Below, piece by piece: positions 854 to 55,462 of a stretch of 64,000 nt of DNA. Below the pieces are notes generated by a model. It was given only the letters and a program-made list of their open reading frames with translations, was not told the DNA's origin and searched no databases. The stretch lies in contig CAYLVM010000002.1 of assembly GCA_964387145.1 (NCBI GenBank), forward strand, positions 31,763 through 95,762, written 5' to 3'. Every line of letters begins with the position of its first letter. The stretch's first letter is position 1. The translations under genes were made by a program, and so were the position numbers. Source of the DNA: an uncultured Acidimicrobiaceae bacterium (GTDB lineage: Bacteria; Actinomycetota; Acidimicrobiia; Spongiisociales; UBA5794).

Positions 854-2860
<2,007 letters not shown>

Positions 2861-2902
2861 TCAGGGCTGAAAACCCCTTGTCTACCGGCACGAATAGGTG
2901 AT

Positions 2903-3229
2903 TCAGGGGGACCCGATCTGTAGTCGAATCGACTGCACCAGGTCGTCACCGTACTCGCGTGAAATCACCGCGAGAAGGGCCTCGGTCTGGTACCTCAGCA
3001 GGGACCCGATCGTCCCATCGGGAACTGCTACGAGGAGCACGCCATCGCGCACGCCGATCGGTTCCCCGGCCTTCCAGTCGCCCGGCGCAAACGAACTCCA
3101 GGTATCGATCATCTCGGCCTGGCGAACATCGACACCGGCGGCAGCACCCTCGATCACCGATCCGAGGACCTGGCTGATCTCGGTGAGTTGTTTCTGTGGT
3201 CCATTGGTGAGGTACTTGGCTCGCATCAC
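2903..3229 (-). CDS. DUF721 / DciA-like protein (Rv0004-like)
   Basis: 108 aa ORF between recF and gyrB, the conserved position of the DUF721 protein in actinobacterial oriC regions. Confidence 0.55.
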   Translation of the reverse strand: MMRAKYLTNGPQKQLTEISQVLGSVIEGAAAGVDVRQAEMIDTWSSFAPGDWKAGEPIGVRDGVLLVAVPDGTIGSLLRYQTEALLAVISREYGDDLVQSIRLQIGSP

Positions 3230-4314
3230 ACTACTTCTCCATCTCTGACCGACCAGCGGCGTCCTTCGATCGGTACTTCATCTTCGCGTGCGGTTGTGAC
3301 AAATACCTGACCCGCGGGCATGAGCGACAGGACCCGTCTCGCTCGATCGATGTCGAGTTCGGAGAAGACGTCATCGAGGAGAAGGATCGGAGTCTGATTG
3401 CGGATCGTCTCGATCAGTCGGTACGCCCCGACCCGAAGAGCGAGAGCGACCGTGCGTTGTTCACCCTGGGACGCTCTCGTTCGCGTTTGGCGTCCATCGA
3501 GGAGGAGGTCCGGTTCGTCCCGATGGGGGCCCACCGTCGTCGTTCTGATCTCGAGGTCCCTGTGTCGTCGCTCCTGAAGGCTCGATCGCAACGCTTCGAC
3601 GAGTTCCGTCAGGTCTGACTCGCCATCCGATACCCACCCAGAGCGGTACTCCCATCTCAATACGCCACTTCCACCCACGACGTGATAGGCCTCCATCATC
3701 TCGTCCTGGAGTTCGGCGGTCACGGACCGCCGGTGTATCAGAACCCTGGCGCCGGCATCGGCAAGGCGCTCATCCCATACGTCGAGAGAAACGGGATCTG
3801 TGTGTCTTCCTCCCTGCTTGATGAGCGAGTTGCGTTGTCGAAGCGCCCGCTCGTAGTCACTCAGATCCGCCCCTGCTTGCGGCCACAGTCGCGATGCCAG
3901 GTCGTCGAGATAGTCACGACGCATGCCGGGACCACGCTTGACCACGTCGAGGTCGTCGGGAAGGAACGCCACGACGGGGACACTCAGCAGCACGTCTCTG
4001 ACTCGCTTTGGACGCTTTCCATTCACCAGGATCGTGCGACGACCCTTGGCTGGGATCTCGACCTCGACCGTCAGCTCGGTCGCCCCGCCCCCGACTCCTC
4101 CGCGCAGGACCGCTGCATCAGTCCCGTCTCGTACGAGCGCCGTGTCGGGTACGGATCGAAACGATCGCATCGTTCCGAAGTATCCGATCGCCTCGAGGAC
4201 CGACGTCTTGCCGGCTCCGTTGTCACCCACGAGGACGTTGACTCCTGGCACCGGTTCGAAGCGAAGGGTCTCGTAGGAGCGGAGATCCTTGAGCTCCATC
4301 CAGACGAGGTGCAT
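3226..4314 (-). CDS. recF: DNA replication and repair protein RecF
   Basis: 362 aa; Walker A GDNGAGKTSVLEAI; position after dnaN. Confidence 0.9.
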   Translation of the reverse strand: MHLVWMELKDLRSYETLRFEPVPGVNVLVGDNGAGKTSVLEAIGYFGTMRSFRSVPDTALVRDGTDAAVLRGGVGGGATELTVEVEIPAKGRRTILVNGKRPKRVRDVLLSVPVVAFLPDDLDVVKRGPGMRRDYLDDLASRLWPQAGADLSDYERALRQRNSLIKQGGRHTDPVSLDVWDERLADAGARVLIHRRSVTAELQDEMMEAYHVVGGSGVLRWEYRSGWVSDGESDLTELVEALRSSLQERRHRDLEIRTTTVGPHRDEPDLLLDGRQTRTRASQGEQRTVALALRVGAYRLIETIRNQTPILLLDDVFSELDIDRARRVLSLMPAGQVFVTTAREDEVPIEGRRWSVRDGEVV

Positions 4315-4321
4315 ACCCCGC

Positions 4322-5401
4322 TCAGAGGCGCACGGGCATCAACAGATACCGGAAATCGACCTTGTCTGCTCCGTGAATGAGTCCTGGCTTGAGTGGATCA
4401 CTCGTCTCGATCACGATCCGTTCGTCGTCGACGGCAGTGATGCCATCGGTCAGGTACCTCGTGTTGAACGCGATCGTCATGTCCTCGCCGCTGTACTCAC
4501 CTTCGAGAAGTTCGGTTGCCTCTCCCACTTCCTGGCGAATGACACTCAACTCGACACCGCCGCTGTGCATTGCAAGACGAACGGGGATGTGATCCTCGGC
4601 GACGAGTGCCGCACGGCCGACTGCATCGAGCAGCGCTGCCTTCTCGAGAACGAGCCTGTTCGAGTGTCCCTCCGGGAGGAGTTGCCGGTAATTCGGGAAC
4701 GTCGCATCGATCACACGGACGGTCAAGCGACCGTGATCGGTCACGAAAGTCGCCTCGCGCTCCCCGAGCGCAACCTTCATCTTGCCAACGCCGACGGTCT
4801 TGCCGAGCTCCCGAAGGGCACGGTACGGCACCAGCCGAGACCTCTCCGTCGTCACACCGGGAACATCCTTGACGGCGAGGCGGTACGAGTCCGTCGCAAC
4901 GAGACGCAGTGCGTCGTCGTTCGCCTCGAACAGCACACCGGTGAGCGTCGGACGGGCATCGTCGGAGGACGCAGCAACACCGACCTGGCTCAGGGCACGG
5001 GTGAGATCTCCACCATCGACGGTCACCGCATCGGTGATATCGGCATCGGTGATCTTGGGGTAATCGTCGACTGCCATCTCACGAAGCTTGAACCGCGGAC
5101 CACTTCCCGTGATCTCGACCTCTCCCTCGTTCGATGCAAGCGTCACCGCTCCCGGCGGGAGCTTGCGCACAGCCTCAGCTGCCAACTTTGCTGGGATGAC
5201 CGTCTTGCCCTCGTCGGTCACCTCTACTTCGAGATACGTCCGAACCGTGATCTCGTTGTCCGTACCCGTCACGGTCAGTTTTCCGCCGACGACGTCGCAC
5301 AGAACACCCTGGAGAATCGGGAGTGGTGATCTCGTGCCGACCGCTCGTGCTGCTCTCACGAGCACGTCGGCCAGATCGTCTCGTTCCGCTCTGATTCGCA
5401 C
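4322..5401 (-). CDS. dnaN: DNA polymerase III beta sliding clamp
   Basis: 359 aa; beta-clamp-like sequence; canonical position downstream of dnaA. Confidence 0.93.
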   Translation of the reverse strand: MRIRAERDDLADVLVRAARAVGTRSPLPILQGVLCDVVGGKLTVTGTDNEITVRTYLEVEVTDEGKTVIPAKLAAEAVRKLPPGAVTLASNEGEVEITGSGPRFKLREMAVDDYPKITDADITDAVTVDGGDLTRALSQVGVAASSDDARPTLTGVLFEANDDALRLVATDSYRLAVKDVPGVTTERSRLVPYRALRELGKTVGVGKMKVALGEREATFVTDHGRLTVRVIDATFPNYRQLLPEGHSNRLVLEKAALLDAVGRAALVAEDHIPVRLAMHSGGVELSVIRQEVGEATELLEGEYSGEDMTIAFNTRYLTDGITAVDDERIVIETSDPLKPGLIHGADKVDFRYLLMPVRL

Positions 5402-5588
5402 TTTGTTCTTCCTCTGCTGTTGCTGCTGTTTGTATATCTAAAGAGTAGAAGTAGTAGTAGGGGCTGTGGATTGTGGAGATCTCCAGGAAACCGTTGGTAT
5501 TGCTACATCTCTCATCCACAGGGGGTGTGGATAGATGACACGATATCCACTGTTGTGAAACCATGCCCAGCCGACCTGTGGAAGAATC
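5402..5588. promoter_or_regulatory. oriC-like dnaA-dnaN intergenic region: AT-rich stretch plus several DnaA-box-like 9-mers
   Basis: Sequence shows TGTGGATTGTGGAG, TCATCCACAGGGGGTGTGGATAG, ATATCCACT, TGTGGAAG (TTATCCACA-like boxes in both orientations) next to an AT-rich tract at 5405-5460. Confidence 0.6.
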
Positions 5589-6968
5589 TCATCTTGTCCC
5601 CAGCTGTTGAGTGATGTCGGTGACCTGGTCGTAGACATCCTTGTCGGTCTGAAGGAGACCCTTGATCTTGTCGACGGCGTGCATCACGGTCGTGTGATCT
5701 CTGCCACCGAACGCCTGGCCGATCCGGGGAAGCGACAGCCCTGTGTGTTCCCGACAAACGTACATGGCGATCTGCCTCTGCCTGGCGAGAGGTTGGCGCC
5801 GCGAACTGCCGGTGAGCTCGGATCGAGGTATCTCGTAGTACTGCCCTACCGAGGAGATGATGATGTCGGCCGTCAGAGGTTCCTCGGACTGAAGACGGAC
5901 AACGTCTCTCAGAACCGACGAGGCGAGTTCGAGGGTGACGCGTTCGTGTGTCAACGTCGAGAATGCGGTGACACGGGTCAAGGCCCCCTCGAGCTCACGG
6001 ATGTTGTCCGCAACGTTCTGGGCGATGAACTCGAGGACGGTATCGGGAACCGGCGTCGTCGTTTCCGAAGCGTTCTTTCGCAGGATCGCCAGCCGCGTCT
6101 CTATGTCAGGACTCTGGATGTCGGTGGTGAGCCCCCACTCGAAGCGGCTCCGCAACCTGTTCTCGAGTGTGCGGAGGTCGCGAGGAGAGCGATCCGAAGA
6201 GATGACGAGCTGGTTCCCAGCCTCGTAGAGCGAGTTGAACGTGTGGAAGAACTCCTCGAGCACCTGCTCCTTGCCTTCGAAGAACTGCACGTCGTCGAGG
6301 AGCAGCAGGTTCACCTTGCGGTAGCGATCCTTGAAGTTCTCCATCCGCTTGCGCCGGATCGAGTTGATGAAATCGTTGAAGAACGCCTCCGAAGTCACAT
6401 ACCTCACCGTTGCCGTCGGATCGAGTTCGAGACGGTGTTGGCCGACGGCGTGGAGAAGGTGCGTTTTTCCGAGGCCAGCGCTCGCGTAGATGAAGAGGGG
6501 GTTGTAGTGGCGTCCGGGCTGCTCTGCGACGGCCTGGGCTGCAGCATGTGCGAAGCGGTTGGACTGCCCGACGACGAAGTTCTCGAACGAGTATCGGGCA
6601 ACGAGGTTGGTCGTGACGGGGAAGCCGCCGTCGCCGGGAGGTGTCGTGTTGAACGTCGCTTGGAATGGGGCCGGCTCATCGGTTGCTACCGGAACCGGTG
6701 GAGCCGGGGCGACCTCGATCGATATCTCGAGCGGTTCGGCCCACACGGAGGCCGCGATCTCGTTGAGTTGATGTGTGTAGTTGTCCTCGACCCATGTGGC
6801 GTTGAAGCGGTTCGGCGCCACGAGTATCAGGGTCCCGTCATCGACGGACGCGGTCAGCGGCCGGATCCAGGTTTCCCACTTCGCAATACCGATGACGTCT
6901 CTCAGGCGACTGTGAAAAAGCTCAATTTGAGCGTCCACGGCCCCACGAGGTGTCTGTGTGACTCCCAC
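5589..6968 (-). CDS. dnaA: Chromosomal replication initiator DnaA
   Basis: 459 aa; AAA+ motifs (LFIYASAGLGKTHLLHA, LLLDDVQF) and C-terminal DNA-binding domain. Confidence 0.95.
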   Translation of the reverse strand: MGVTQTPRGAVDAQIELFHSRLRDVIGIAKWETWIRPLTASVDDGTLILVAPNRFNATWVEDNYTHQLNEIAASVWAEPLEISIEVAPAPPVPVATDEPAPFQATFNTTPPGDGGFPVTTNLVARYSFENFVVGQSNRFAHAAAQAVAEQPGRHYNPLFIYASAGLGKTHLLHAVGQHRLELDPTATVRYVTSEAFFNDFINSIRRKRMENFKDRYRKVNLLLLDDVQFFEGKEQVLEEFFHTFNSLYEAGNQLVISSDRSPRDLRTLENRLRSRFEWGLTTDIQSPDIETRLAILRKNASETTTPVPDTVLEFIAQNVADNIRELEGALTRVTAFSTLTHERVTLELASSVLRDVVRLQSEEPLTADIIISSVGQYYEIPRSELTGSSRRQPLARQRQIAMYVCREHTGLSLPRIGQAFGGRDHTTVMHAVDKIKGLLQTDKDVYDQVTDITQQLGTR

Positions 6969-7060
6969 GACTCATACTCCTTGTCAGGCTCACGCCCAGC
7001 CCGTAAAACTGTCCACACATCTATCCACAGGGTGTGGAGAAGACGTACCACGGTCACTGA
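6969..7060. promoter_or_regulatory. DnaA-box cluster upstream of dnaA (rpmH-dnaA intergenic)
   Basis: CTGTCCACACATCTATCCACAGGGTGTGGAGAAG at ~7010-7045. Confidence 0.5.
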
Positions 7061-7418
7061 CCGACCGTACTCCGTGGGGGAAGAGCGGACATCCGCCAAT
7101 GGAGCGAAGGCGAGCATAGGAACGCTTTCCCCGACACATCAAGAGCGGCAAATCCGCGGGTACCTTCGACGAGAGGCGAACGAGCGACTCTCCAAAACCT
7201 CCGTTGTCACAAGGGTTTTCGGGGGTCGGTGCGGCCGCCGTCTTCGTGCCCATTTCGGGAGATTCCACTGAAAATGCCCTCTCCTGTGTTTCGCGACCCC
7301 TCCGTAGTTTTCGCGTCCTATCGCGGAGGTGTCGTTTCGGTGCGGACGTCCCTAGAATATCCCCGTTCCGTGGCTGTACGGATGTACCGCGACTCCCCCC
7401 AACCAGGGATTACCTCAA

Positions 7419-7553
7419 ATGAAGCGTACCTATCAACCAAACAACCGCCGCCGCAAGCGCAAGCACGGTTTCCGTTCGCGCATGCGCACACGTTCGGGAC
7501 GGGCGCTACTACGGCGCCGTCGTTCCAAGGGCCGTCACGAACTCTCCGCGTAG
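7419..7553 (+). CDS. rpmH: 50S ribosomal protein L34
   Basis: 44 aa [44 protein letters not shown]; absent from the ORF track because it is shorter than 60 aa. Confidence 0.88.
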
Positions 7554-7560
7554 GGTTCTC

Positions 7561-7896
7561 TTGTACGTCTCCCTGCGTCCGGGATCGAGATTCGGACCCG
7601 TCTACCGTACGGGGTCGAGGCGCCGCAGTGGCGGGGTCGTCGTATTCCAGGCTCCTGGTGAGCACGTTGAACCAGAGACGGGGTTTGTTGCAGGGAAGAA
7701 GGTAGGCAATGCAGTTGCACGAAATAGATCCAAGCGCAGGATGCGCGAGGCTGCTCGCAGAATCGACCTCGCACCCGCAACAGCGTACGTCTTCGTCGCG
7801 ACGCGAGCGGTCCTCGACGCCCCGTTTGGGACGCTCGTCGAGTGGATGCAACAGGCCGTACTCGACGGAGCGACCGCTTTGGACGTGAGGGCGTAG
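7561..7896 (+). CDS. rnpA: Ribonuclease P protein component
   Basis: 111 aa basic protein immediately after rpmH; [19 protein letters not shown] motif. Confidence 0.85.
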
Positions 7897-7897
7897 T

Positions 7898-8185
7898 GTG
7901 ACCGATCGATCAGATGAACCTGTCTCGCCCGTCTCCCGGGTCGTGCTTGGGACGATCCGGCTGTACCAGAAGCTGATATCGCCTCTGCTGACGAGCAACT
8001 GTCGCTACCACCCGAGCTGTTCTCACTACACATATGAAGCTATCGAGATCCACGGCGCCGGCAAGGGCTCCTGGCTCGGCATCAAACGCATCGGTCGTTG
8101 TCACCCTTTCCATAAGGGTGGGGTGGATCCGGTTCCCGGATCTCCTGGAAGCATGGCTGAGACGACGAAAGGGAGCCCTTCGTGA
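7898..8185 (+). CDS. yidD: Membrane protein insertion efficiency factor YidD
   Basis: 95 aa with the conserved YQKLISPLL...[10 protein letters not shown] motif. Confidence 0.85.
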
Positions 8186-9120
8186 ATCCGTGGCAACTGC
8201 TGCTCGACCTCCTCGGGAGCATTCTGTCGTTCTACTACGACCTCATTCCAGAATATGGAATATCCATCATTCTTCTCACCCTGACGGTGAGCCTCCTGCT
8301 GTTCCCCCTGACGCTCAAGCAGACGAAGTCCATGCGAGCGATGCAGGAGATCCAACCAGAGGTCAAGCGCTTGCAGAAGGAGTACAAGGGAGAGAAGGAG
8401 GAGCTGAACAAGCGACTCATGGCCCTGTATCAGGAACGCGGTGTCAACCCCGCTGCAGGGTGTCTCCCCCTCGTCATCCAGATGCCTATATGGTTCGCTC
8501 TCTACCGGGTCCTGTGGCGTGGCAACGGCATCCCCTCTGGCTCGGTGCTCAGCTCGGTGATCGAGACGGCGAACAACGCCCTCTACACCGTGGATGCCTC
8601 CGGGGATCTGACAACAACGCTGAAGGCGGGTGTCGACATCGCCTCGAAGCAGTTCGACCATGTCACGTTCCTCGGCATGAACCTGATGGTTCGGCCTTCC
8701 CAGGCCGTCGACTTCGGCAATCCACTGGGTGCTCTCCCCTACCTCATCCTGATCGCCATCATCGTTGTCGCCGGGTTCTATCAGCAGGTTCAGACGACCC
8801 GCAAACGGAAGAACGCACCCGATACCGACGCTCCACAGAACTCGCAGATGCAGGGGATGCAGAACGCCATGAAGATCATGCCCGTGGTCTTCGGCTTCAT
8901 CTCCTGGAACTTCGTTGCAGGCCTCGGTCTGTACTTCGCCACATCGAACGCTTTCCGAGTAGGTCAGCAGGCCATCATCCTGCGCCAACACGGTGACGAC
9001 AACGGCGATACGAAGGGGAAGGGTGCCGAAACCGGCACCGATGAACCGTCCGACGAGCCGGAGGGCAGCGGTCCATCACCCAATGCGAGTAAGAAGCGCA
9101 ACCGCAGAAGAAGGAAGTAG
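8182..9120 (+). CDS. yidC: Membrane protein insertase YidC
   Basis: 312 aa; YidC/Oxa1 family sequence ([16 protein letters not shown]); basic C-terminal tail. Confidence 0.9.
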
Positions 9121-45631: not shown

Positions 45632-46213
45632 ATGATCTCTCACACACTCGGTGTCGTACTAGCCGGTGGCAAGAGCCGTCGCATGGGAATCGACAAGGCT
45701 TCGATCGAGGTAGGTGGAACGTCGATGCTCGCGCTGGCCGTTGCAACCCTGTCGGGCCTGTTCGACGATGTCGTCGTCGCCGGGGGATCGGAGACTCCCC
45801 CGGGTTGTGTGCTGTTGGCCGACACACTCCCTGGAGCCGGTCCTCTTGCGGGCCTCGACGCTGCGTACGGCATTGCCCGAGACAGGGCCGTGTTCCTCAT
45901 GGCCCTCGACATGCCGTTCGTCGACGATGCGACCGTGCGCTCCATCGTCGAACCCACCGTTGATGCAATGGCCGCAAGAGTGCCTATCAGCGGGAACCGG
46001 CGCCATCCGCTGTGTGCCGTCTACGGAGCGAATCTCGGCCCACTCGTGACCGAGCGCCTTGTGAGGGAGGACCGCTCGATGGCGGCATTCATCGCCGGTA
46101 TCGACGGGGTCGAGTACATCAGGGTCGAGGAGCGACCCATGGTGAACGTGAACACCATCGAGGATCTCGAGGTAGCGCTCAGAGAATCCGGTCCGCCCCG
46201 CAGTACACGTTGA
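45632..46213 (+). CDS. mobA: Molybdenum cofactor guanylyltransferase
   Basis: 193 aa; GVVLAGGKSRRMG motif. Confidence 0.8.
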   Translation: MISHTLGVVLAGGKSRRMGIDKASIEVGGTSMLALAVATLSGLFDDVVVAGGSETPPGCVLLADTLPGAGPLAGLDAAYGIARDRAVFLMALDMPFVDDATVRSIVEPTVDAMAARVPISGNRRHPLCAVYGANLGPLVTERLVREDRSMAAFIAGIDGVEYIRVEERPMVNVNTIEDLEVALRESGPPRSTR

Positions 46214-47000
46214 AGCCACCATCGCGAACGAAACCGAGGACCGTCATGTTCAGTTCCTCGCCGAGGTCGACTGCCAGGTCGGATGCTCCCGACACCCCGC
46301 CGATCACCGGGATCCCTGCAACCGCTGCCTTCTGAACGATCTCGAAGCTGATCCGTCCCGACACGAAGAGGATGACGTGGTTGAGTGGCCACCGTGTCGT
46401 TGCCAGATGGCCGATGAGTTTGTCGACGGCGTTGTGTCTCCCGATGTCCTCGAATACGGCGATGAGCTCACCCGATGGTGAGAAAGCGGCGGCGGCGTGG
46501 ATGCTCCCCGTCGTATCGAAGGTCCGTTGCCGTTCTCGCATGGCACCGGACAGCGTCGAGATGGTCCCTGCGGGGATCATGGGCCCCGGTGCCATCGAAC
46601 GCGCCGCTACCCGCACTGCATCGATCGATGCCTTGCCACACACGCCGCACGACGACGACGTGAAGAAGTTCCTCCGGAACTGCTCGGGGTCGACCGTAAC
46701 TCCCTCGGCGAGCACCATGCGGTAGCGATCACCCTCAGCGGTTCCCTCGACTCGCTTGATCGAATCGACTTCGTGTGGGCCGAGAACGATCCCCTCGGTC
46801 AATGCGAATCCGAGACCGAGAACCTCGTCGTCACCCGGGGTGCGCATCAGCACTGCGATCGGGACGTCATGCAAACGGAACTCGACAGGCGATTCAGAGA
46901 CGAGGTGGTCCGCGGCACTTGTCGCTACACCATCGTGGTATCGAACGATCGGTCTACTCATGGGGTGATGTTCCGCTTGCTGCGACGCGGGAGCACGCAC
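46179..47000 (-). CDS. fdhD: Formate dehydrogenase accessory sulfurtransferase FdhD
   Basis: 273 aa; FdhD family sequence with the conserved SSCGVCG motif. Confidence 0.85.
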   Translation of the reverse strand: MRAPASQQAEHHPMSRPIVRYHDGVATSAADHLVSESPVEFRLHDVPIAVLMRTPGDDEVLGLGFALTEGIVLGPHEVDSIKRVEGTAEGDRYRMVLAEGVTVDPEQFRRNFFTSSSCGVCGKASIDAVRVAARSMAPGPMIPAGTISTLSGAMRERQRTFDTTGSIHAAAAFSPSGELIAVFEDIGRHNAVDKLIGHLATTRWPLNHVILFVSGRISFEIVQKAAVAGIPVIGGVSGASDLAVDLGEELNMTVLGFVRDGGFNVYCGADRIL

Positions 47001-47020
47001 TACGTCGTACGTACTTCGTT

Positions 47021-47884
47021 CTACGCATCTTCACTCTGGACATAGGCGTAGCCGAAGCGGCCTTTGATGCAGAGGTGGCCACTGGTGACGTCGTGGTCGA
47101 GTGGCGACGTGACCTTGACGATGCGGTTGTCCTGGACATGCAGGTCGAGGTTGCAGCCGACACCGCAGTAGCTACACACCGTCCTTGCGACGTGTTGTGC
47201 AGACTCATCCCACGTCCCTGCCTCGCGCATGCGGTACTCGGAGGTGAACATGAGCGCACCCGTGGGACAGACGCCGACGCAGTTTCCGCAGTACACGCAC
47301 GCCGATTCGGGCAGCGTGATGTCGAACTCGGTGGTGATGGTCGCAGCGAGTCCTCGGCCCCCAACATCGATGGCGAAGGTGTTCTGTGCATCGGGACCAC
47401 ACGCCGCGACGCAGCGGAAGCACATGATGCACTTGTCGTAGTCCCGTATGTAGAGGTCGTCCTCGATCTTGACCTCGCGTCTCGGGCGGGCCCACGAACC
47501 CCACCGATCGGGGTCGACGCCATACCGTTCCATGAACCCTTTCGTCGTGTCCTCGACGAGGGACATGTCGACGGTCGATGCGAGCAGTTCGTAGACCGTC
47601 TTGCGGACGGCCTTCACTCTCGAGGATTCGGTCACAACTGCCATGCCGGGGGTGATCTCCCGGGAGCACGCAGGCACGAGGTTGCGCGAGCCTTCGACCT
47701 CAACGACACAGACACGGCACGAGTTGAACGGTGCAAGTGTCTCGATATAGCACAGGGTCGGCACGGTGACATCGATCGAAGCGCACGCCTCGAGGATCGT
47801 CGTCCCGGTAGATGCCGTGATCTGGCGACCGTCGATCGTGATCTCGATGAGCGATTCGGTGGCCTGGGTGGTCACGACGACCCC
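47021..47884 (-). CDS. Formate dehydrogenase Fe-S subunit: 2Fe-2S ferredoxin plus 2x[4Fe-4S] plus Mo-domain 4Fe-4S motif (NuoG N-terminal-like), without a molybdopterin domain
   Basis: C-terminus ends in CSYCGVGCNLDLHV...GHLCIKGRFGYAY, the N-terminal cluster motif of molybdopterin oxidoreductases; start placed at the VVVTTQATESLIEITIDGRQI GTG overlapping the upstream gene. Confidence 0.7.
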   Translation of the reverse strand, partial: GVVVTTQATESLIEITIDGRQITASTGTTILEACASIDVTVPTLCYIETLAPFNSCRVCVVEVEGSRNLVPACSREITPGMAVVTESSRVKAVRKTVYELLASTVDMSLVEDTTKGFMERYGVDPDRWGSWARPRREVKIEDDLYIRDYDKCIMCFRCVAACGPDAQNTFAIDVGGRGLAATITTEFDITLPESACVYCGNCVGVCPTGALMFTSEYRMREAGTWDESAQHVARTVCSYCGVGCNLDLHVQDNRIVKVTSPLDHDVTSGHLCIKGRFGYAYVQSEDA

Positions 47885-49680
47885 CCGATGATGCCGATCG
47901 CAAGCGCAGACTGCACAGCGGCGGACGCTGCCTGTCCGAGGCCACAGATCGAAGCGTCCCGCAGGACATGGTCGAGATCGCTGAGCAGTGTCAGCTCCGT
48001 ATCTACGTCCGTCGATCCCGTCCTGATCCGCAGAAGCGTCTCTTCCTGGCGGACCGTCCCTGCTCGGCACGGCACACAGACGCCACAGGACTCCTCGGCG
48101 AAGAAATGGGCGATCCGCGACACGATGTCGGGAAGGTCGGTATCGGTGTTGAAGACCAGTACGACACCCGAGCCGAGTCCGATGCCGTGTTCCCGGGTGT
48201 CCTCGAACGTCAGTGGCAGATCGAAGTCGGCCTCGGTGATGAACGCACCGGCTGCGCCCCCGATGAGGACGGCAGCCACCTCCCCGTCGACTCCCCCTGC
48301 GAGTTCGATCAACTCACCGGTGGTCGCCCCGAACGGCACCTCGTAGACCCCGGGGTCCTTGACGTTGCCTGATACACAGAACAGCTTTGGACCCTTGGAG
48401 TCCTCGGTTCCGATGGCGGAGAACGCTTCGCCACCGTCGAGAACGATGGTGGGGACGTTCATGAGCGACTCGACGTTGTTGACGAGTGTCGGGCACCCGA
48501 AGACACCTGCCTGGGTGGGGAAGGGTGGCTTCTGGCGTGGCTCGCCTCTGAAGCCTTCGATCGAGTTGAACAGGGCGGTCTCCTCGCCACAGATGTAGGC
48601 ACCCGCTCCCTTGCGGAGTTCGATGTCGAACGTGAACCCGCTTCCGGCGACGTCCTCGCCGAGGTACCCGGCTGCGCGAGCCTCATCGATCGCCTCGGCC
48701 AGGCGCGCATGTGCGATCGGATACTCGCCGCGGATGTAGATGTAGCCGCGACGTGCGCCGACGGCATACCCGGCGATCGTCAACGCCTCGATGAGACCGA
48801 ACGGATCCGTCTCCATCAGGACCCGGTCCTTGAAGGTGCCTGGCTCGCTCTCGTCGGCGTTGCAGATGACGAACTTGTCGCCTTCCTCTCCTGCGACCGC
48901 ATTCCACTTGATTCCTGCGGGGAACGCTGCACCGCCACGTCCGCGCAGACCACTCGTGGTGATCTCAGAGAGGATCTGCTCGGGGCCGATGGCGATCGAA
49001 TGAGAAAGGGCCGCGTATCCACCGTTCTTCTCGAAGGCTTCGAGAGACGTGGCCTGTCGGGACAGGAGTGTGGTGCCGGGGGTCGGGTCCGTCGGCTCAA
49101 CTATGGATGTGGGCTCGTCGATGGAGAGGATCTCGATGACCTGATCCACCGTGACGGGTGCGATGACGACATCGTCGCCGCCGGCAACCTGAACGAACGC
49201 TGCCGAGCCCTTCTCGCACTGCCCGAGACACGGTGAGTGTCTCCACATGCCTTCGTCGATCGTCTGTCCCGCGTCGCCGAAGCGTTGGGTGAGGTCAGCG
49301 AGGAGACCGTCGACACCTGTTGCCTTGCATGCAATGTCGTCGCACAGGTGGGCGACCCGCCTGGGTCGTTCATCGGTCGCGATGAGGTCGTAGAACGTCG
49401 CAACGCCGTACGCCTCTGCCGGGGATACGGGGATACGCTCGGAGATGTAGTTGAGGGCGCCGTGGCTGACCCACCCGACGTCACCCTGAACACCGTGGAG
49501 AGCAGGCAGGAGGAGGTGCCGGCGATCCTGGGATGCGCGGAACCCGCCATAGGCGACGTGATCGTCGACAGCGGATCGTTCCTCGGCTCCAGCCCACACC
49601 GAGTCTGGCTCACCGAGTACACGATCGACTGCCGCTCGTTCTTCGGCGGTTGGTGCATCGGGGGTGGTTCTGTAGTCCAT
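47872..49680 (-). CDS. NAD-dependent formate dehydrogenase diaphorase subunit, fused NuoE-like (2Fe-2S) plus NuoF-like (FMN/NADH/4Fe-4S)
   Basis: 602 aa; NuoE thioredoxin-like Cys pattern, then NuoF motifs (GRGGAAFPAG, ESCGVCVPCR). Confidence 0.85.
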   Translation of the reverse strand: MDYRTTPDAPTAEERAAVDRVLGEPDSVWAGAEERSAVDDHVAYGGFRASQDRRHLLLPALHGVQGDVGWVSHGALNYISERIPVSPAEAYGVATFYDLIATDERPRRVAHLCDDIACKATGVDGLLADLTQRFGDAGQTIDEGMWRHSPCLGQCEKGSAAFVQVAGGDDVVIAPVTVDQVIEILSIDEPTSIVEPTDPTPGTTLLSRQATSLEAFEKNGGYAALSHSIAIGPEQILSEITTSGLRGRGGAAFPAGIKWNAVAGEEGDKFVICNADESEPGTFKDRVLMETDPFGLIEALTIAGYAVGARRGYIYIRGEYPIAHARLAEAIDEARAAGYLGEDVAGSGFTFDIELRKGAGAYICGEETALFNSIEGFRGEPRQKPPFPTQAGVFGCPTLVNNVESLMNVPTIVLDGGEAFSAIGTEDSKGPKLFCVSGNVKDPGVYEVPFGATTGELIELAGGVDGEVAAVLIGGAAGAFITEADFDLPLTFEDTREHGIGLGSGVVLVFNTDTDLPDIVSRIAHFFAEESCGVCVPCRAGTVRQEETLLRIRTGSTDVDTELTLLSDLDHVLRDASICGLGQAASAAVQSALAIGIIGGSS

Positions 49681-49687
49681 GGTCGCC

Positions 49688-51574
49688 TCAGTTTGCCGTG
49701 AGCGGTTCGATCCGCACTGCGGTCGCCTTGAACTCTGCGGTCCCGGATTTGGGATCCCACGCGTCGAGCGTGAGGATGTTGACGTCTACGTCGTCGGGCG
49801 AGTGGATCGCCATGAAGACGAGGCCCTTGCGTAGTCCCGAACTGATCCGTACCGGGACGTCGATCGATCCCCGACGTGACGTGACCCTGACGACCTCACC
49901 TTCCTCGACTCGAAGCGCGGTTGCTTCTTGCGGTGATACGTCGATGACGGCACCGTGGCGGATCGGTGATCGGAAGCCGCCAGACTGGACGCCGGTGTTG
50001 TAGCCGTCGAGCCGCCTGCCCGTCGTGAGGCGGATCGGGAAGTCGTCATCGAGGGGATCGACGGGGGGTACCCAGTCGACCTTCGAGAACGCTGCAGGCT
50101 CGCGTGGCATGGGGTCTTCCCACAGCCAGGCGTGGAGGAACAGCGTCCCTGGATGGTCCTCGGATGGGCATGGCCATTGGAGGCCACCGAGGGTTTCGAG
50201 CCGCTCATACGTCATGCCGGTGTGCATCGGGCTCAGAGCCCGTAGCTCGTCCCAGATCTCTTCGGCGGAGCGATGTGGCCAGTCGTTGCCCAACTGTCGT
50301 GCCAACAGCGTGAGGATCTCGATGTCGTCCTTGGCGTCGGCCGGCGGTTCGAGTGCTTTGTGTACGCGCTGCACGCGCCGTTCGCTCGAGGTCACGGTTC
50401 CGTCGGTTTCTGCCCATCCGACCGCGGCCGGGAGCACGACGTCGGCCATCTCCGCTGTTTTCGTGAGGAAGATGTCCTGGACGACGAGATGGTCGAGTCC
50501 GGCGAGAAGGTCGATGGTGCGACCCGTATCGGCCTCAGATTGTGCCGGATTCTCTCCGAGGATGTACATGGCGGTGAGATCGCCGCTCTCCATGGCATCG
50601 AACATCTGGGTGACGTGCCAGCCGTTCTCTGACGGGATCGAAGTGCCCCACATCGACTCGAACTTCGAGCGGAGTTCGGGGTCGGTCACGTTCTGGAACC
50701 CGGGGAGCTTGTTGGGGAGGGCTCCCATGTCGCCACCGCCCTGGACGTTGTTCTGCCCGCGGATCGGCACGAGCCCCGAGCCGTAACGGCCGAGATGTCC
50801 GGTGAGAAGTGACAGGTTGATGAGGGCGAGCACGTTGTCGGTCGCGTTGTGATGCTCGGTGATACCCAGTGTCCAGCACAGTTGTGCAGTGCGTGCCTTT
50901 GCGTAGTCGTGGGCAAGGGAGCGGATCGCATCGGCGGGCACACCGGTGGTCGCCTCTGCATACTCGAGGGTGTAGGGCTCGACGTGGTCGGTGAACTCTT
51001 CGAAGCCGGAGGTGGAGTGCGCGACGAACTCGGTGTTGACGAGGCCTGCATGGATGATCTCACGTGCAACGGCGTTGGCGAGGGCGATGTCGGAGCCGGT
51101 GTCGATCCCGAGCCAGATATCTGCCCACTCTGCGGACTCTGAGCGACGTGGATCAACGGCGTACATCTTGGCTCCGTTGCGCATACCTTTGGCGAGATGG
51201 TGGAAGAAGATAGGGTGGGCATTACGCGCGTTGGACCCCCACAGGATGATGAGGTCCGTGGTCTCGATCTCTTCATAGGACGACGTTCCGCCGCCTGCTC
51301 CCAGGACTGCCGCCAGACCGGCGACGCTAGGAGCGTGTCAAGTTCGGTTGCAGCTGTCGACGTTGTTCGTGTGAAGCACCGTGCGTGCGAACTTCTGTGC
51401 CACGAAGTTCATCTCGTTCGTCGCCTTCGAACACGAGAACATGCCCGTAGCGTCGGGAGTGTTGCGTTGGAACCCGGCCGCTGCCCTCTCGAGGGCGACA
51501 TCCCAGCTTGCCTCGGTGAGCCGTCCGTCCTCGCGGACCATCGGCGTCGTCAGGCGTTCGTATCGTTTACCCAT
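49688..51574 (-). CDS. fdhA: Formate dehydrogenase molybdopterin catalytic subunit, predicted selenoprotein with in-frame UGA at 51338-51340 (complement)
   Basis: Continuous frame ...VDSCNRT-UGA-HAPSVAGLAAVLGAGG...; Sec aligns with the conserved Sec/Cys of formate dehydrogenases (E. coli FdhF ...RV-U-HGPSVAGL); RBS GGGAGGTG before ATG 51574. Confidence 0.7.
51311..51323 (-). promoter_or_regulatory. Candidate SECIS apical hairpin CGCC-GGUCU-GGCG, 18 nt 3' of the fdhA UGA
   Basis: Same loop (GGUCU, the Gly-Leu codons) and same UGA-to-loop distance as the E. coli fdhF SECIS. Confidence 0.5.
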
Positions 51575-51667: not shown

Positions 51668-52363
51668 TCAGAACAGGATCGCGATGGCGTCCCCGAGGAG
51701 CGACACACCGAAGACGAGCAACAGCACCGCCATAACGACGGAGTTGTTCTGGATGAGCCAATCCTTCGCATTCGAGAACGCGTCGTCGGCGCGCTCACCG
51801 ACGATGAGGTACCCGATCACCGGGATGGCCACCGTGCTGGCTGCGATCGCAATGAATATCAAGAGAGCGATCATCTCTTCGCTGAACGCCATACCGGCCC
51901 CGGCAATCGATACTGCAGCGCCTGCGGTCAGCAGGAGATTCTTCGGATTCACTGCGGACAGGAGGAAACCCATTCCGAGCGACTTACCGAGACCGAACTG
52001 ATCGATGGCCGCCATCCACTTCGGTGCCTCGGCCGTCTCGCCGGTGCCGGGCCGCTTCTGCCACGCCCCCCAGGCCACGGCGAACATTCCGAGACCGAGC
52101 AGACCTTTGATGATGCCCGTCGTGGTCGAGGGTTCGCCCTCGCTCGGCCCAAAGCCCGGGATCAAGAGGACGATCGTCCCGACGACCAGCAGACCGGCGA
52201 TCCAGCCGAACATGAACATCGGCCCGTTGGTCCTCGCTTTTGGAGTGAACAGCATCACGATCGCCGCAGCGATCGGTACGGGGCTCACCGCAACACCTAC
52301 CGCGAATGGAAGGATCTCACCGAACACGTCGCCCATGGCTACTCCCCTGATCGCGTTGGCCAC
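51668..52363 (-). CDS. GAP-family polytopic membrane protein (DUF2910-like)
   Basis: 231 aa; six hydrophobic segments. Confidence 0.45.
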   Translation of the reverse strand: MANAIRGVAMGDVFGEILPFAVGVAVSPVPIAAAIVMLFTPKARTNGPMFMFGWIAGLLVVGTIVLLIPGFGPSEGEPSTTTGIIKGLLGLGMFAVAWGAWQKRPGTGETAEAPKWMAAIDQFGLGKSLGMGFLLSAVNPKNLLLTAGAAVSIAGAGMAFSEEMIALLIFIAIAASTVAIPVIGYLIVGERADDAFSNAKDWLIQNNSVVMAVLLLVFGVSLLGDAIAILF

Positions 52364-52472: not shown

Positions 52473-53291
52473 CTAGAAGAAGAGCCTTTTGGCAGCGTCG
52501 GTGAAGATGGCGAGGACGAGGAACCAGGCTCCGACGAGGATCAGGATGCGGCCACCCCACCTTTTCACCGCCGGACCGGCCGTCTTGAACCGGCTGAGGG
52601 TCGATGCCTGTGCAAATGTGGCACCGAGAGCGGCCAGGAACATCAGGATCACGATCATCGCGGCAGCGACCGTGAACGTGAACACCGACGTCGCGACGCT
52701 TCCGGCGATGAGGGACTGTGCGGCCAGACCGGCCAGCAGCGGTCCCGTTCAGGAGAACCCCGCCGCCAGGTAGCCGAAACCGTACAGGACGTGGCTCGAG
52801 AAGCGGGTCTCGTCGCCGATCGCTGCGCGTCTGCGGTCGATGGGCTCGGCGATTCTCGTCATGGCCGAGAAGTGCAGATCGACGACGCGTAGCTGAACAA
52901 GACCCATGACGATCAGAACGATGCCGACCACGACTCGCAGGATCCTTCCCTGGGCCGAGTCGAAGGAGAACAGGCGGGCGATGGCACCACCACCGAGGGA
53001 GAGCAGGAGACCGAAACCCACGATGAAGGCAACGGCCCCGACAGATGCTCCGGTCGCGAATCGAAGGGTATCGCGCGCCCGATGCTCCGGCGATGTCGTT
53101 GCCCGGCGGGCGAGTGTGGTCAGGAGGAGAGGGAACGAACAGGGCGAGAAGAACGCGGCGATACCGACCGTCGCGGCGACCACAACGAGTCCAACGCCGG
53201 TCGCTCCGCCGACGTCGAAGGAGCGGAACAGCCGGAACCCGACGTAGCCGGCGAAGCCGACGACGAGCGTGATGATGACGAGGAGCGCCAT
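52473..53291 (-). CDS. CcdA/DsbD-family thiol-disulfide transporter homolog with in-frame UGA (complement 52749-52751) replacing the second conserved Cys; predicted selenoprotein
   Basis: Reads MALLVII...AAFFSPCSFPLL...YGFGYLAAGFS-UGA-TGPLLAGLAAQSLIAG...RWGGRILILVGAWFLVLA; both segments are in one frame; the UGA aligns with Cys of the CcdA TM4 motif (AAGWTPCIGPILG); GGCC-GGUCU-GGCC hairpin 18 nt downstream. Confidence 0.6.
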
Positions 53292-53372
53292 ACGCGTCCG
53301 CAGCCTGGACTGCTTCAACTCGTCTCTGTCGGTCGTCACGGTTCTCCTGTGGTGTGGTGTGACTACCCTAAA

Positions 53373-53392
53373 CCTTGAAGTCGACTTCAAGG
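53373..53392. promoter_or_regulatory. Perfect 20-bp palindrome CCTTGAAGTCGACTTCAAGG between divergent merR and ccdA-like genes (MerR-type operator candidate)
   Basis: Seen in sequence; resembles the SoxR box (CCTCAAGTTAACTTGAGG) in architecture. Confidence 0.5.
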
Positions 53393-53404
53393 TCAAGAGG
53401 GATC

Positions 53405-53800
53405 GTGCAGATAGGAGAACTCGCCGGGGCGAACACCGTATCGACCGCAACGGTGCGGTATTACGAGCAGATCGGGCTTCTCGATCCCCCGAAGCGGACG
53501 GCGTCGGGGTACCGGGACTACGACCAAGATGCTTCAGCGAGACTCGGCTTCATTCGGGCTGCCCAGGGAGCAGGCCTCAGCCTGGAGGAGATCCGCACGA
53601 TCCTCGAGATATCGAACGCCGGAGATGCCCCGTGCGGTCACGTTGCAGGGTTGATAGATGAAAAGGTGAAGACGATCGCTACGAAGATCGCAGCACTTCA
53701 GGTGGCGAAGGCCGATCTCGAGGCGCTCTCCGCTCGAGCCCGAACCCTCACCGGAACCCCCTGCCCCGAAGGCTCCATCTGCCACATCCTCGCCCCATAG
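53405..53800 (+). CDS. MerR family transcriptional regulator with C-terminal Cys/His cluster (metal-responsive type)
   Basis: MerR HTH (IGELAGANTVSTATVRYYEQIGLL), coiled-coil linker, C-terminal PCGH...PCPEGSICH. Confidence 0.8.
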   Translation: MQIGELAGANTVSTATVRYYEQIGLLDPPKRTASGYRDYDQDASARLGFIRAAQGAGLSLEEIRTILEISNAGDAPCGHVAGLIDEKVKTIATKIAALQVAKADLEALSARARTLTGTPCPEGSICHILAP

Positions 53801-53856: not shown

Positions 53857-54336
53857 TCAGTAGGCGCCGGCGAGTTTGCGGTGGTCCCAGCTCGTCACCT
53901 TGATGGGTTCGACGATGACCGCGGTGTTCTTGGAGGCGAACCGGCCGAAGGCAGCATCGAGTTCCTCTGGTGAAAGCGCCTGGGGTTCGGTGCCCGAGAA
54001 CGGGTAGCGGGCGGCGAGCTTGCCGTAGATCTCGAGTACGTAGTCGGGATCCGTGACCAGTTTTGCCGTTCCCTTGATCATGACGCCCTGGAGCTCGGCG
54101 TAGAAATCGCCGGTCTCTACGAGCACCGTGAGGCGCGGATCGCGCATCAGGTTGACGATCTTCTGGGACTTGGTGAAGGACCGGAACACGATCCGCCCAT
54201 CGTCCAACGTGAACCACATCGGAGCGAGGTGCGGGGTGCCGTCCTTGTTGATCGATGCGACCTCGAGGATCCTGGCGCCGGATCCGAGGAACTCCTGGAT
54301 CTCGGCATCGTTCATGGTGATGTCTTTTCGTGCCAT
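53857..54336 (-). CDS. PPOX-class (pyridoxamine 5'-phosphate oxidase-like) F420/FMN-binding protein
   Basis: Start MARKDITMNDAEIQEFLGSGARILEVASINKDGTPHLAPMWFTLDDGRIVF typical of PPOX split-barrel proteins. Confidence 0.7.
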   Translation of the reverse strand: MARKDITMNDAEIQEFLGSGARILEVASINKDGTPHLAPMWFTLDDGRIVFRSFTKSQKIVNLMRDPRLTVLVETGDFYAELQGVMIKGTAKLVTDPDYVLEIYGKLAARYPFSGTEPQALSPEELDAAFGRFASKNTAVIVEPIKVTSWDHRKLAGAY

Positions 54337-54360
54337 GGAGCCAATGTAGCGACACCAGGA

Positions 54361-54406
54361 CTCTGGCGCCGAATCGGCTCGGATGCGAGCTGTTCCAGCG
54401 CCAGAC
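54361..54406. repeat. REP-like palindromic element, copy 5 (in a divergent promoter region)
   Basis: CTCTGGCGCCGAATCGGCTCGGATGCGAGCTGTTCCAGCGCCAGAC. Confidence 0.75.
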
Positions 54407-54565
54407 GCCAAAAGCCGACTGGTCGGAATGTTCCGGGGTCGTCTAGCCTTGTTCATAGAGAACGGGGCACGGGCGACCTTCGGGCGGCTGAGGTCCACGA
54501 CGTTCACAGAACGGAACGACCCGCTATGTCCTCCAACCCCTTGGGTGGAGAGAAGGGACCTCACG

Positions 54566-55462
54566 ATGGCCGACGAATCTCGCCGACCCATGACCGCACC
54601 GGCGGTGCGCGCCCGCAAGGGTGGCGCGAAGCTGAAGATGGTCACCGCCTACGACGCACCCACGGCTCGCATCGCCGACCGTGCAGGTACCGACATCATC
54701 CTCGTGGGTGACTCGCTCGCCAACGTGGTGCTCGGGTACGACAACACGCTCAAGGTCTCGATGGACGTCATGATCCACCACACCGCTGCTGTCACGCGAG
54801 CCAAGCCGAAGGCTCTCGTCGTCGGCGACATGCCGTGGCTCTCCTATCACACATCGACCGACGAAACGGTCAAGAACGCAGGCCGCTTCATCCGTGAGGG
54901 TGGTGCAAGCGCCGTGAAACTCGAAGGTGGACGCAAGCGTCTTCCGATGATCGAAGCCGTTCTCGATGCAGAGATCCCCGTCCTTGGCCATCTCGGACTC
55001 ACCCCCCAGTCGGTGAATACGATGGGTGGATACAAGGTGCAGGGAAAGCACGCTCAGGATGCGTACGAGATGATCTCAGATGCCCACGCCATCGCCGACG
55101 CCGGCGTGTTTGCCATCGTCCTCGAAGGTGTCCCCGACGTCGTTGCAGAGATCGTGACCAGCGAGGTTGCGGTCCCGACCATCGGTATCGGTGCAGGGAT
55201 CCACTGCGACGGCCAGGTCCTGGTGTTCCACGATGTCACAGGCCTCGGGGCAGGCGAGTACATCCCGAAGTTCGTCCGCACCTATGCCAACCTCGCCGAC
55301 GATGCGGTAGCCGCCCTCGAACAGTTCTACGCCGACATCGATTCGGGTGCGTTCCCGTCTGAGGCCGAGACCTATCACATGCCTGCTGAGTCTGAGGAGA
55401 TCCTTCGCCATCTCGCCGATCCGTCAGACCACCTGATGGCCGACGAGGCGATGGAGGGCTGA
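54566..55462 (+). CDS. panB: 3-methyl-2-oxobutanoate hydroxymethyltransferase
   Basis: KMVTAYDAPTARIADRAGTDIILVGDSLANVVLGYDNT motif. Confidence 0.9.
   Translation: MADESRRPMTAPAVRARKGGAKLKMVTAYDAPTARIADRAGTDIILVGDSLANVVLGYDNTLKVSMDVMIHHTAAVTRAKPKALVVGDMPWLSYHTSTDETVKNAGRFIREGGASAVKLEGGRKRLPMIEAVLDAEIPVLGHLGLTPQSVNTMGGYKVQGKHAQDAYEMISDAHAIADAGVFAIVLEGVPDVVAEIVTSEVAVPTIGIGAGIHCDGQVLVFHDVTGLGAGEYIPKFVRTYANLADDAVAALEQFYADIDSGAFPSEAETYHMPAESEEILRHLADPSDHLMADEAMEG

Follow-up and report, generated by a model that had tools for sequence, protein, structure and literature searches.

In a 64,000-nucleotide stretch of contig CAYLVM010000002.1 from an uncultured Acidimicrobiaceae bacterium (in the following: the window), a gene for a CcdA-like membrane protein is interrupted by a single in-frame TGA. 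This locus raises two questions: is the codon read as selenocysteine (Sec), and what would a Sec-containing membrane protein of this type do? An earlier inspection without database searches (the sequence-only reading) had joined two minus-strand open reading frames (ORFs; 53291..52749 and 52685..52473) into one protein. We confirmed that both lie in one frame with a lone TGA between them (52751..52749), and found all the motifs named there in the translation: FSPCSFPLL, YGFGYLAAGFS-TGA-TGPLLAGLAAQSLIAG and RWGGRILILVGAWFLVLA. Three lines of evidence, namely an alignment of Sec and Cys forms, purifying selection downstream of the codon and a covarying SECIS (selenocysteine insertion sequence) element, bear out that the gene very probably encodes a selenoprotein with UGA-197 read as Sec.

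Conservation of the UGA codon and the SECIS element

Sixty-five loci were fetched independently by a genome scan with peptide patterns, none of which covered the UGA codon; in these loci the tblastn match spans the whole protein. The aligned codon is TGA in 52 and TGC or TGT in 13 of the 65 loci, and it is embedded in the strongly conserved stretch G-F-G-(U/C)-T-G-P-L-L-A-G-L-A. Orthologs with Cys or TGA at the same codon thus exist, and the alignment places the UGA, as had been supposed, at the second conserved membrane Cys of the predicted CcdA-type fold. The TGA is shared by loci whose proteins fall to 36 % identity, a pattern that by these sequence comparisons is far above chance.

In a protein search, more than 100 homolog clusters came up, almost all of which measure about 180-200 aa and cover about 65 % of the query. 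In the alignment, the called homologs all terminate precisely at ...AGFG/S. By profile search against 1.84 billion cluster representatives, 683 relatives were found at E ≤ 1e-3; in the best 150 of these 683, 75 end exactly at the TGA and eight go on with a Cys, the remainder being fragments. In NCBI and JGI records, 'hypothetical protein' or truncated 'CcdA' is the name given to the Sec forms. Gene callers end the protein at about 190 aa or divide it in two, with the result that thousands of database entries carry a wrong annotation.

Most complete loci encode a further 87-92 aa downstream of the TGA, and motifs such as VKRWGG are kept in this part. The 21 codons between the TGA and an internal GTG align with the Cys-form proteins; they differ between the window and L001 by eight synonymous and no other changes, and between the window and L004 by nine and none. 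As only synonymous changes are found in these codons just after the TGA, translation runs through it. At the merA-adjacent locus L038 (6499-6860), the frame diverges about 15 residues after the TGA and tblastn aligns no further than residue 201; a frameshift, a pseudogene or a faulty assembly would account for this.

If the gene did not encode a selenoprotein, it would be a pseudogene with a TGC-to-TGA change, a split gene (196 aa plus 70 aa from GTG 52685) or a gene in which UGA stands for Trp or Gly. Gene callers do give two ORFs or a truncated protein, and one source translated the codon as Trp (P0042 from JGI, GFGWTGPIL); the latter is presumably an annotation artefact, the TGA having been translated under a TGA=Trp code. 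TGA is the commonest stop codon of the window genes (31 of 48), which counts against an alternative genetic code. These explanations are also opposed by the TGA at the same codon of 52 divergent loci, by the conserved codons behind it with synonymous changes only between close relatives, and by the covarying SECIS element and the adjacent Sec-type formate dehydrogenase (FDH) gene with the same SECIS described below. We therefore consider all of them extremely improbable.

Bacterial SECIS elements are recognized by a stem-loop just downstream of the UGA, a G(G/U) in the apical loop and a distance of 16-37 nt between loop and UGA (PMC13188914). With nucleotides numbered from the U of UGA as 1, the predicted GGCC-GGUCU-GGCC hairpin is present at nt 18-30, with the GGUCU loop at nt 22-26, a bulged U17 and a covarying upper stem. 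Its core is a 4-bp stem (nt 18-21/27-30) with extra pairs at 14-16/31-33. Loop and spacing are as in the Escherichia coli fdhF SECIS, and the SECIS of the FDH gene in the window also has the same loop at the same positions.

Covariation was measured on 50 distinct sequences (alignment A1). Here, the upper helix is 89 % paired and five of its seven pairs show changes on both sides; pair 27-39 of A1 occurs as G-C (23), C-G (12) and U-A (10), and pair 24-41 as G-C (30) and C-G (12). The covariation of 0.222 compares to 0.104 in shuffled alignments, 0 of 500 of which reached 0.222, and it is far above the slid controls. The lower stem is weakly supported (55 % paired). Of the 50 sequences, 48 use GGU for the Gly of the loop, compared to about 23 % GGU among the Gly codons of the window genes. 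Two Cys forms (L007 and L029) retain much of the GGUCU sequence, and distant Cys forms are without the hairpin. A scan of the window with Rfam at gathering thresholds gave no match, bacterial SECIS elements being apparently outside Rfam coverage.

The Sec-type FDH gene with a matching SECIS that the sequence-only reading had pointed out nearby was found as well: the in-frame TGA of fdhA lies 1.13 kb from the end of the selenoprotein gene. The presence of a Sec-type fdhA in the window indicates that the host probably decodes UGA as Sec. A tRNA scan of the 64-kb window found no tRNA genes, hence no tRNA-Sec there; in L011, a tRNA-SeC gene (444-536) is located about 5.5 kb upstream of the Sec-form gene on the same contig, with no sel protein genes between. 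fdhA may be co-transcribed with the selenoprotein gene, and no terminator-like site was found on the minus strand between the two. An SfLAP/LysE-type gene separates them only in the window and in L004; in L001 and L003, an fdhA homolog comes soon after the selenoprotein gene, at tblastn offsets of about 1.2-1.3 kb and with no SfLAP match between.

The FDH alpha subunit of the window itself looks split and permuted (46179-51574, minus strand). The Sec-molybdopterin part (51574-49688) is followed by a NuoE/F-like fusion (49680-47872), then by a separate ORF (48070-47021) representing the 2Fe-2S/4Fe-4S/Molybdop_Fe4S4 N-terminal part, and finally by fdhD (47000-46179).

According to the protein alignment, the N-termini of homologs (MTTDREELK...) begin 16 codons upstream of the ORF start at 53291. 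Together with an AGGAGA sequence at 53348-53343, this makes GTG 53339 the likely start codon (Table 1). An 8-nt inverted repeat in this region (53341-53348/53413-53420) was rejected as a regulatory element, since it consists of the ribosome-binding site of one gene and the IGEL codons of merR. The window also covers the neighbourhood of the chromosomal origin (857-9117), with gyrB (857-2860, minus), dnaN (4325-5437, minus), dnaA (5592-6971, minus) and yidC (8161-9117, plus); this makes the locus of the selenoprotein a chromosomal one, at a distance of about 45 kb from dnaA.

Table 1. Features of the selenoprotein locus and its surroundings in the window. SECIS nucleotides are counted from the U of UGA.
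Feature	Position	Strand	Details
Selenoprotein gene (very probable)	52473..53339	-	288 codons and TAG stop; predicted seven transmembrane (TM) helices: N-terminal TM plus 6-TM CcdA-like core
Sec codon (very probable)	52749..52751	-	UGA, codon 197, motif GFS-U-TGP
Cys67 codon	53139..53141	-	TGT, motif FFSPCSFP; predicted partner of Sec197
SECIS hairpin	52712..52746	-	upper stem nt 14-16/18-21 with 27-33 (52738-52719)
SECIS bulged U17	52735	-	
SECIS apical loop	52730-52726	-	GGUCU, nt 22-26
SECIS lower stem (weaker)		-	nt 6-10 with 36-40
MerR-type promoter/operator	53365..53396	-	-35 TTGACC 53396-53391; -10 TAGGGT 53370-53365; 20-bp spacer
Operator palindrome ACCTTGAAGTC/GACTTCAAGGT	53393-53372	-	perfect, 22 bp; 11-nt arms, 100 % complementary
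MerR-family metal-sensor gene	53405..53800	+	divergent; three Cys (APC...CPEGSIC)
SfLAP/LysE-type membrane protein gene	51668..52363	-	PF11139, 152 bits; between selenoprotein gene and fdhA
fdhA, FDH catalytic subunit	49688..51574	-	in-frame Sec-TGA 51340..51338, canonical motif DSCNRT-U-HAPSVAGL

Relationship to the CcdA/DsbD superfamily

The joined protein had been described as a full-length CcdA homolog. We found the CcdA-like two-site pattern, but by ordinary sequence criteria the description does not hold: the protein reaches 14.2 bits (E 0.025) with the Pfam profile DsbD_TM (PF02683), which has a gathering cut-off of 27.1 bits. Among the relatives, P0042 scores above this cut-off (33.8 bits), and E ≤ 0.1 is reached by three of the 14 members in the alignment, the best of them with 1.4e-8. 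The family profile found nothing but a chance match among the PDB sequences (E 1.5). On these scores, the selenoprotein is a remote member of the CcdA/DsbD superfamily.

Two motifs stand out in the family alignments. In FFSPCSFP, the columns F-F-S-P-C-S-F are invariant and the final P is invariant or nearly so. In G-F-G-(U/C)-T-G-P, C and T are invariant, and F, G and P are present in at least 90 % of the sequences. Both core TM1 and core TM4 thus carry a Cys-type residue followed by xxP, C-S-F-P and U-T-G-P in the window protein, which corresponds to the two-site pattern of the CcdA type with Sec in place of the second Cys.

The AlphaFold2 model of the Cys homolog P0013 has a mean confidence (predicted local distance difference test, pLDDT) of 80.7, and the best long structural alignment to Thermus thermophilus CcdA (PDB 5vkv) comprises 172 residues at 3.6 Å with 19 % identity. 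Hydrophobic segments, the positive-inside rule and the helices of the P0013 model suggest a layout of one N-terminal TM plus a six-TM core, with the N-terminus in the cytoplasm. In this layout, C67 in core TM1 and U197 in core TM4 would place the thiol/selenol pair in the middle of the membrane.

Regulator, neighbouring genes and proposed function

The selenoprotein gene is arranged divergently to a gene for a MerR-family regulator with MerR_1, MerR-DNA-bind and MerR domains, and the intergenic region contains a perfect palindrome between two promoter hexamers (Table 1). MerR-family promoters such as PzntA and PmerT are characterized by a long spacer that holds a dyad between the hexamers, and three Cys are typical for sensors of divalent soft metals. 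A standard sigma-70 scan with spacers of 16-18 bp found no promoter upstream of the selenoprotein gene, which fits the spacer length of 20 bp. The regulators that neighbour the genes of relatives always have three Cys, arranged as APC plus C-x5-C or CVCH, and the same type also flanks the merB-merA locus L045. A gene for a PPOX-class (F420-dependent type) oxidoreductase adjoins the regulator/selenoprotein pair in the window (53857-54645, minus strand). A PPOX-class gene is also found next to the selenoprotein gene in L011 (6853-7302); this may be coincidence.

We counted neighbours within 6 kb of 53 Sec-form genes, including the window; the numbers are lower bounds, as many contigs are short. 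A MerR-family gene is present at 28 of these loci, a small thioredoxin-fold gene at 14, a rhodanese at 11, a MerB-like gene at six and MerA at three. MerA is also adjacent in four Cys-form loci, archaeal ones included. On the Pfam-annotated contigs of three subclades, the MerR gene is the only constant partner and the other surroundings are unrelated. Seven relatives (L045, L038, L039, L029, L052, L054 and L062) are part of a merA-operon context under a MerR regulator. The clearest arrangement is that of L045, where merB, merA and the selenoprotein gene follow each other in this order, divergent to merR, with an overlap of 8 nt between the merA stop and the start of the selenoprotein gene. The MerA encoded in this operon scores above the TIGR02053 cut-off (532 vs 454 bits), and the selenoprotein is the sole membrane protein of the operon.

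A second link to metals is provided by domain fusions. Eight of ten N-terminally extended, TGA-truncated cluster representatives have a CxxC-containing HMA domain above the Pfam threshold, and so does P0120. Gene callers cut all of these HMA-fused Sec forms (P0128, P0130, P0135, P0137, P0143, P0145, P0157, P0160 and P0120) at the TGA; for two of them, the DNA (L072:53-1144 and L073:638-1786) confirmed that the frame reads on past the TGA into the conserved C-terminal part.

The taxon labels of eight loci (L005, L011, L016, L023, L025, L034, L046 and L053) differ from Acidimicrobiia, although their content is very like that of the Acidimicrobiia loci. The labels include Gammaproteobacteria, Kiloniellales, Chthoniobacterales and Boseongicola, all for metagenome-assembled genomes of one study, and others are Acidobacteria. 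Mis-binning is probably behind these labels, and not a broad distribution over taxa.

On balance, this context leads us to favour, with modest confidence, a function of the selenoprotein as a soft-metal (Hg-type) transporter. In the proposed mechanism, the divergent three-Cys MerR-family sensor would induce the selenoprotein gene from the long-spacer promoter, and UGA-197 would be decoded as Sec via the canonical bacterial SECIS that starts a few nt downstream. The Cys67/Sec197 pair at mid-membrane could then bind a thiophilic metal. The most plausible candidate is Hg(II), since genuine merA and merB genes share operons with members of the family. A CcdA-like alternating access would move the bound metal across the membrane, where it might be exchanged with cytoplasmic partners: the HMA domains where these are fused, MerA where it is present, and possibly the thioredoxin-like and rhodanese proteins encoded nearby.

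Several observations weigh against this proposal. The best NCBIfam matches of the regulator (CadR-PbrR, ZntR, MerR and CueR) are all below cut-off and score equally. The window contains neither merA nor merB, and its lone MerA-like match, at a distance of 38 kb, resembles a thioredoxin reductase. In the closest clade (L001-L004), the linkage is to a Sec-type fdhA just downstream and not to mer genes, and most loci carry the regulator alone, with or without small partner genes. The selenoprotein has no Pfam or NCBIfam similarity to MerT, MerC, MerF or MerE. On the side of Sec decoding, selA, selB and selD were not found among the 20 large window ORFs scanned. Importing Hg would do harm where a reductase is lacking; where merA is missing, as in the window, export or sequestration would be no less plausible than import.

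The small thioredoxin-fold neighbour is a cytoplasmic protein of about 100 aa (DDCPNW...GSPTVL...GLACR; L018:7247-7570, L068:7693-8001 and 12 further Sec loci). It is a Cys form, is often translationally coupled to the selenoprotein gene and matches the model NF049942 'DF family (seleno)protein' at 67.7 bits (cut-off 70). On the other side of the membrane, DUF7482 (PF24298) is fused to the predicted extracytoplasmic C-terminus in L020 (~6850-7300) and L042 (~6850-7245), and encoded just downstream of the selenoprotein gene in L073 (1791-2372) and L061 (4325-4735). Both partners, together with the predicted CcdA-like fold and the CxxP/UxxP motifs in core TM1 and TM4, would fit a CcdA-type transmembrane reductant relay, the electron-transfer role suggested by the sequence-only reading. 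Here, Cys67/Sec197 would cycle between selenylsulfide and thiol/selenol and pass electrons from a cytoplasmic thioredoxin-like donor to an extracytoplasmic acceptor, for which DUF7482 is a possible candidate.

We regard such a relay as rather unlikely. A thiol-disulfide electron relay for cytochrome c biogenesis finds no sign in the gene context: cytochrome c maturation genes (ResB/C, CcsA/B) were not seen in the annotated neighbourhoods, nor was an exported TlpA/ResA-like thioredoxin in the Pfam-annotated ones. Judged by eye, the small thioredoxin-like partner opens with its first beta strand and without a signal peptide. Moreover, a relay leaves the HMA fusions, the MerR-family control and the merA/merB operons unexplained, and these partners favour soft metals of the Hg(II) type.

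The rhodanese neighbour points to a further possibility. In L018 (7567-8316), a rhodanese-CBS gene of about 250 aa contains two in-frame TGA codons (VVVY-U-HDGL-U-DMSPRAA), and the double-TGA gene is also found in L013, L015, L021, L023, L024, L028, L044, L053 and L055 as well as in the Cys-form locus L007. The products match the rhodanese part of the TsoB model NF045694 weakly (38 bits vs a cut-off of 805) and may represent a separate double-Sec rhodanese subfamily. The Cys/Sec pair could accordingly serve in sulfur or selenium trafficking and pass persulfide, perselenide or selenide to or from the rhodanese-CBS protein, which is encoded next to or near the selenoprotein gene in 11 loci. In favour of this explanation, rhodanese and DsbD-like modules recur together, as the TsoB match illustrates, the window clade is linked to a Sec-dependent FDH, and no specific prokaryotic selenium transporter is known (PMC13188914). 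However, neither the window nor the majority of loci have the rhodanese, the TsoB model gives no match to the window protein, and the HMA fusions and merA/merB indicate metals. Furthermore, three-Cys MerR-family regulators are not known to sense sulfur or selenium. Trafficking of this kind therefore seems improbable to us.

Comparison with known systems

A review of May 2026 tabulates 119 prokaryotic selenoprotein families, and no stand-alone CcdA/DsbD-type membrane protein is part of this table (PMC13188914). Entries that come closest are those for TsoB, for a MerT-type putative mercuric transport protein, for SO_0444 Cu/Zn efflux and for YeeE/YedE (PMC13188914). NCBIfam release 20 (June 2026) holds no matching model for the selenoprotein, and a scan of the window protein gave no match to TsoB or any selenoprotein model, nor to SO_0444 or YedE. 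In the full-text literature we found no description of a Sec-containing CcdA/DsbD-type family, TsoB being represented in our sources by the review and the models, and the deep-Sep paper does not mention the family. That the sequence-only reading knew of no Sec-containing CcdA family members agrees with our search, and the family has probably not been described before. A tblastn search against the PLSDB plasmids gave no match, and a tie to the 'CcdA' proteins of actinomycete plasmid mer systems (PMC12195606) was not established.

Put together as a tentative picture, which we offer as a possibility and with clear reservation, the protein could belong to an undescribed, widespread selenoprotein family (mainly Acidimicrobiia and other Actinomycetota, also Chloroflexota), the first with Sec in a membrane-embedded active site of the CcdA/DsbD fold. 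By means of its Cys-Sec pair, it might be the missing Hg(II)/soft-metal transporter of mer operons without MerT and might form, together with the double-Sec rhodanese-CBS and the DF-family thioredoxin-like protein, a MerR-controlled, selenium-dependent metal-defence module.

The selenoprotein itself would be a well-supported addition to the prokaryotic selenoproteome, from largely uncultured lineages whose selenium biology is little studied. Sec within a transmembrane site is rare, and the link to MerR, merA, merB and HMA offers a concrete, testable case of microbial selenium-mercury interplay, with the selenoprotein as a candidate for the unidentified transporter in mer operons that lack MerT. 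Because the SECIS shares apical loop, bulged U and spacing with that of E. coli fdhF, heterologous tests are realistic.

Compared to CcdA and DsbD_TM, the window protein shares the predicted six-helix core and the positions of the two motifs in core TM1 and core TM4, whereas its sequence remains below the Pfam cut-off and its family profile detects no PDB sequence. It further differs from CcdA by the extra N-terminal TM, which would put the N-terminus and any fused HMA domain in the cytoplasm, by Sec instead of the second Cys, and by its setting among MerR, mer and HMA instead of cytochrome c maturation. The small multi-TM efflux permease ArsG (NF040495) for thiophilic metals or metalloids gives a weak full-length match (residues 36-260); with 25.9 bits, the window protein stays far under the cut-off of 200. 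SO_0444 and YeeE/YedE have in common with it that they are transporter families with Sec members (PMC13188914), but the window protein matches neither the SO_0444 nor the YedE model.

TsoB, as far as the review and the NCBIfam model describe it, is a rhodanese/DsbD fusion with two Sec in the motif UxxxxU (Haft & Tolstoy 2025, as cited in PMC13188914). We take UxxxxU as the active-site loop of its rhodanese, since the rhodanese-CBS neighbours show that loop too. In this respect the two systems are alike: a DsbD-like membrane module and a UxxxxU rhodanese are fused in TsoB and encoded separately in 11 loci of the family. In contrast, the Sec of the window protein is located in the membrane domain, and there is no match to NF045694 at E ≤ 0.01.

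MerT-type mercury transporters are unlike the selenoprotein in sequence, to which they show no relationship, and in fold, which is predicted to be CcdA-like in the latter. The Cys/Sec pair is split over two helices and not vicinal as in CC or CxxC, and most loci, including the window, are without merA. What the two have in common is that each is a membrane protein whose Cys-type site is paired and whose gene is under MerR control, with merA and merB adjacent in some relatives, and that there are HMA partners as known from MerP and NmerA. A precedent for Sec in a mercury transporter is available, too, in the MerT-type selenoprotein of the review (PMC13188914).

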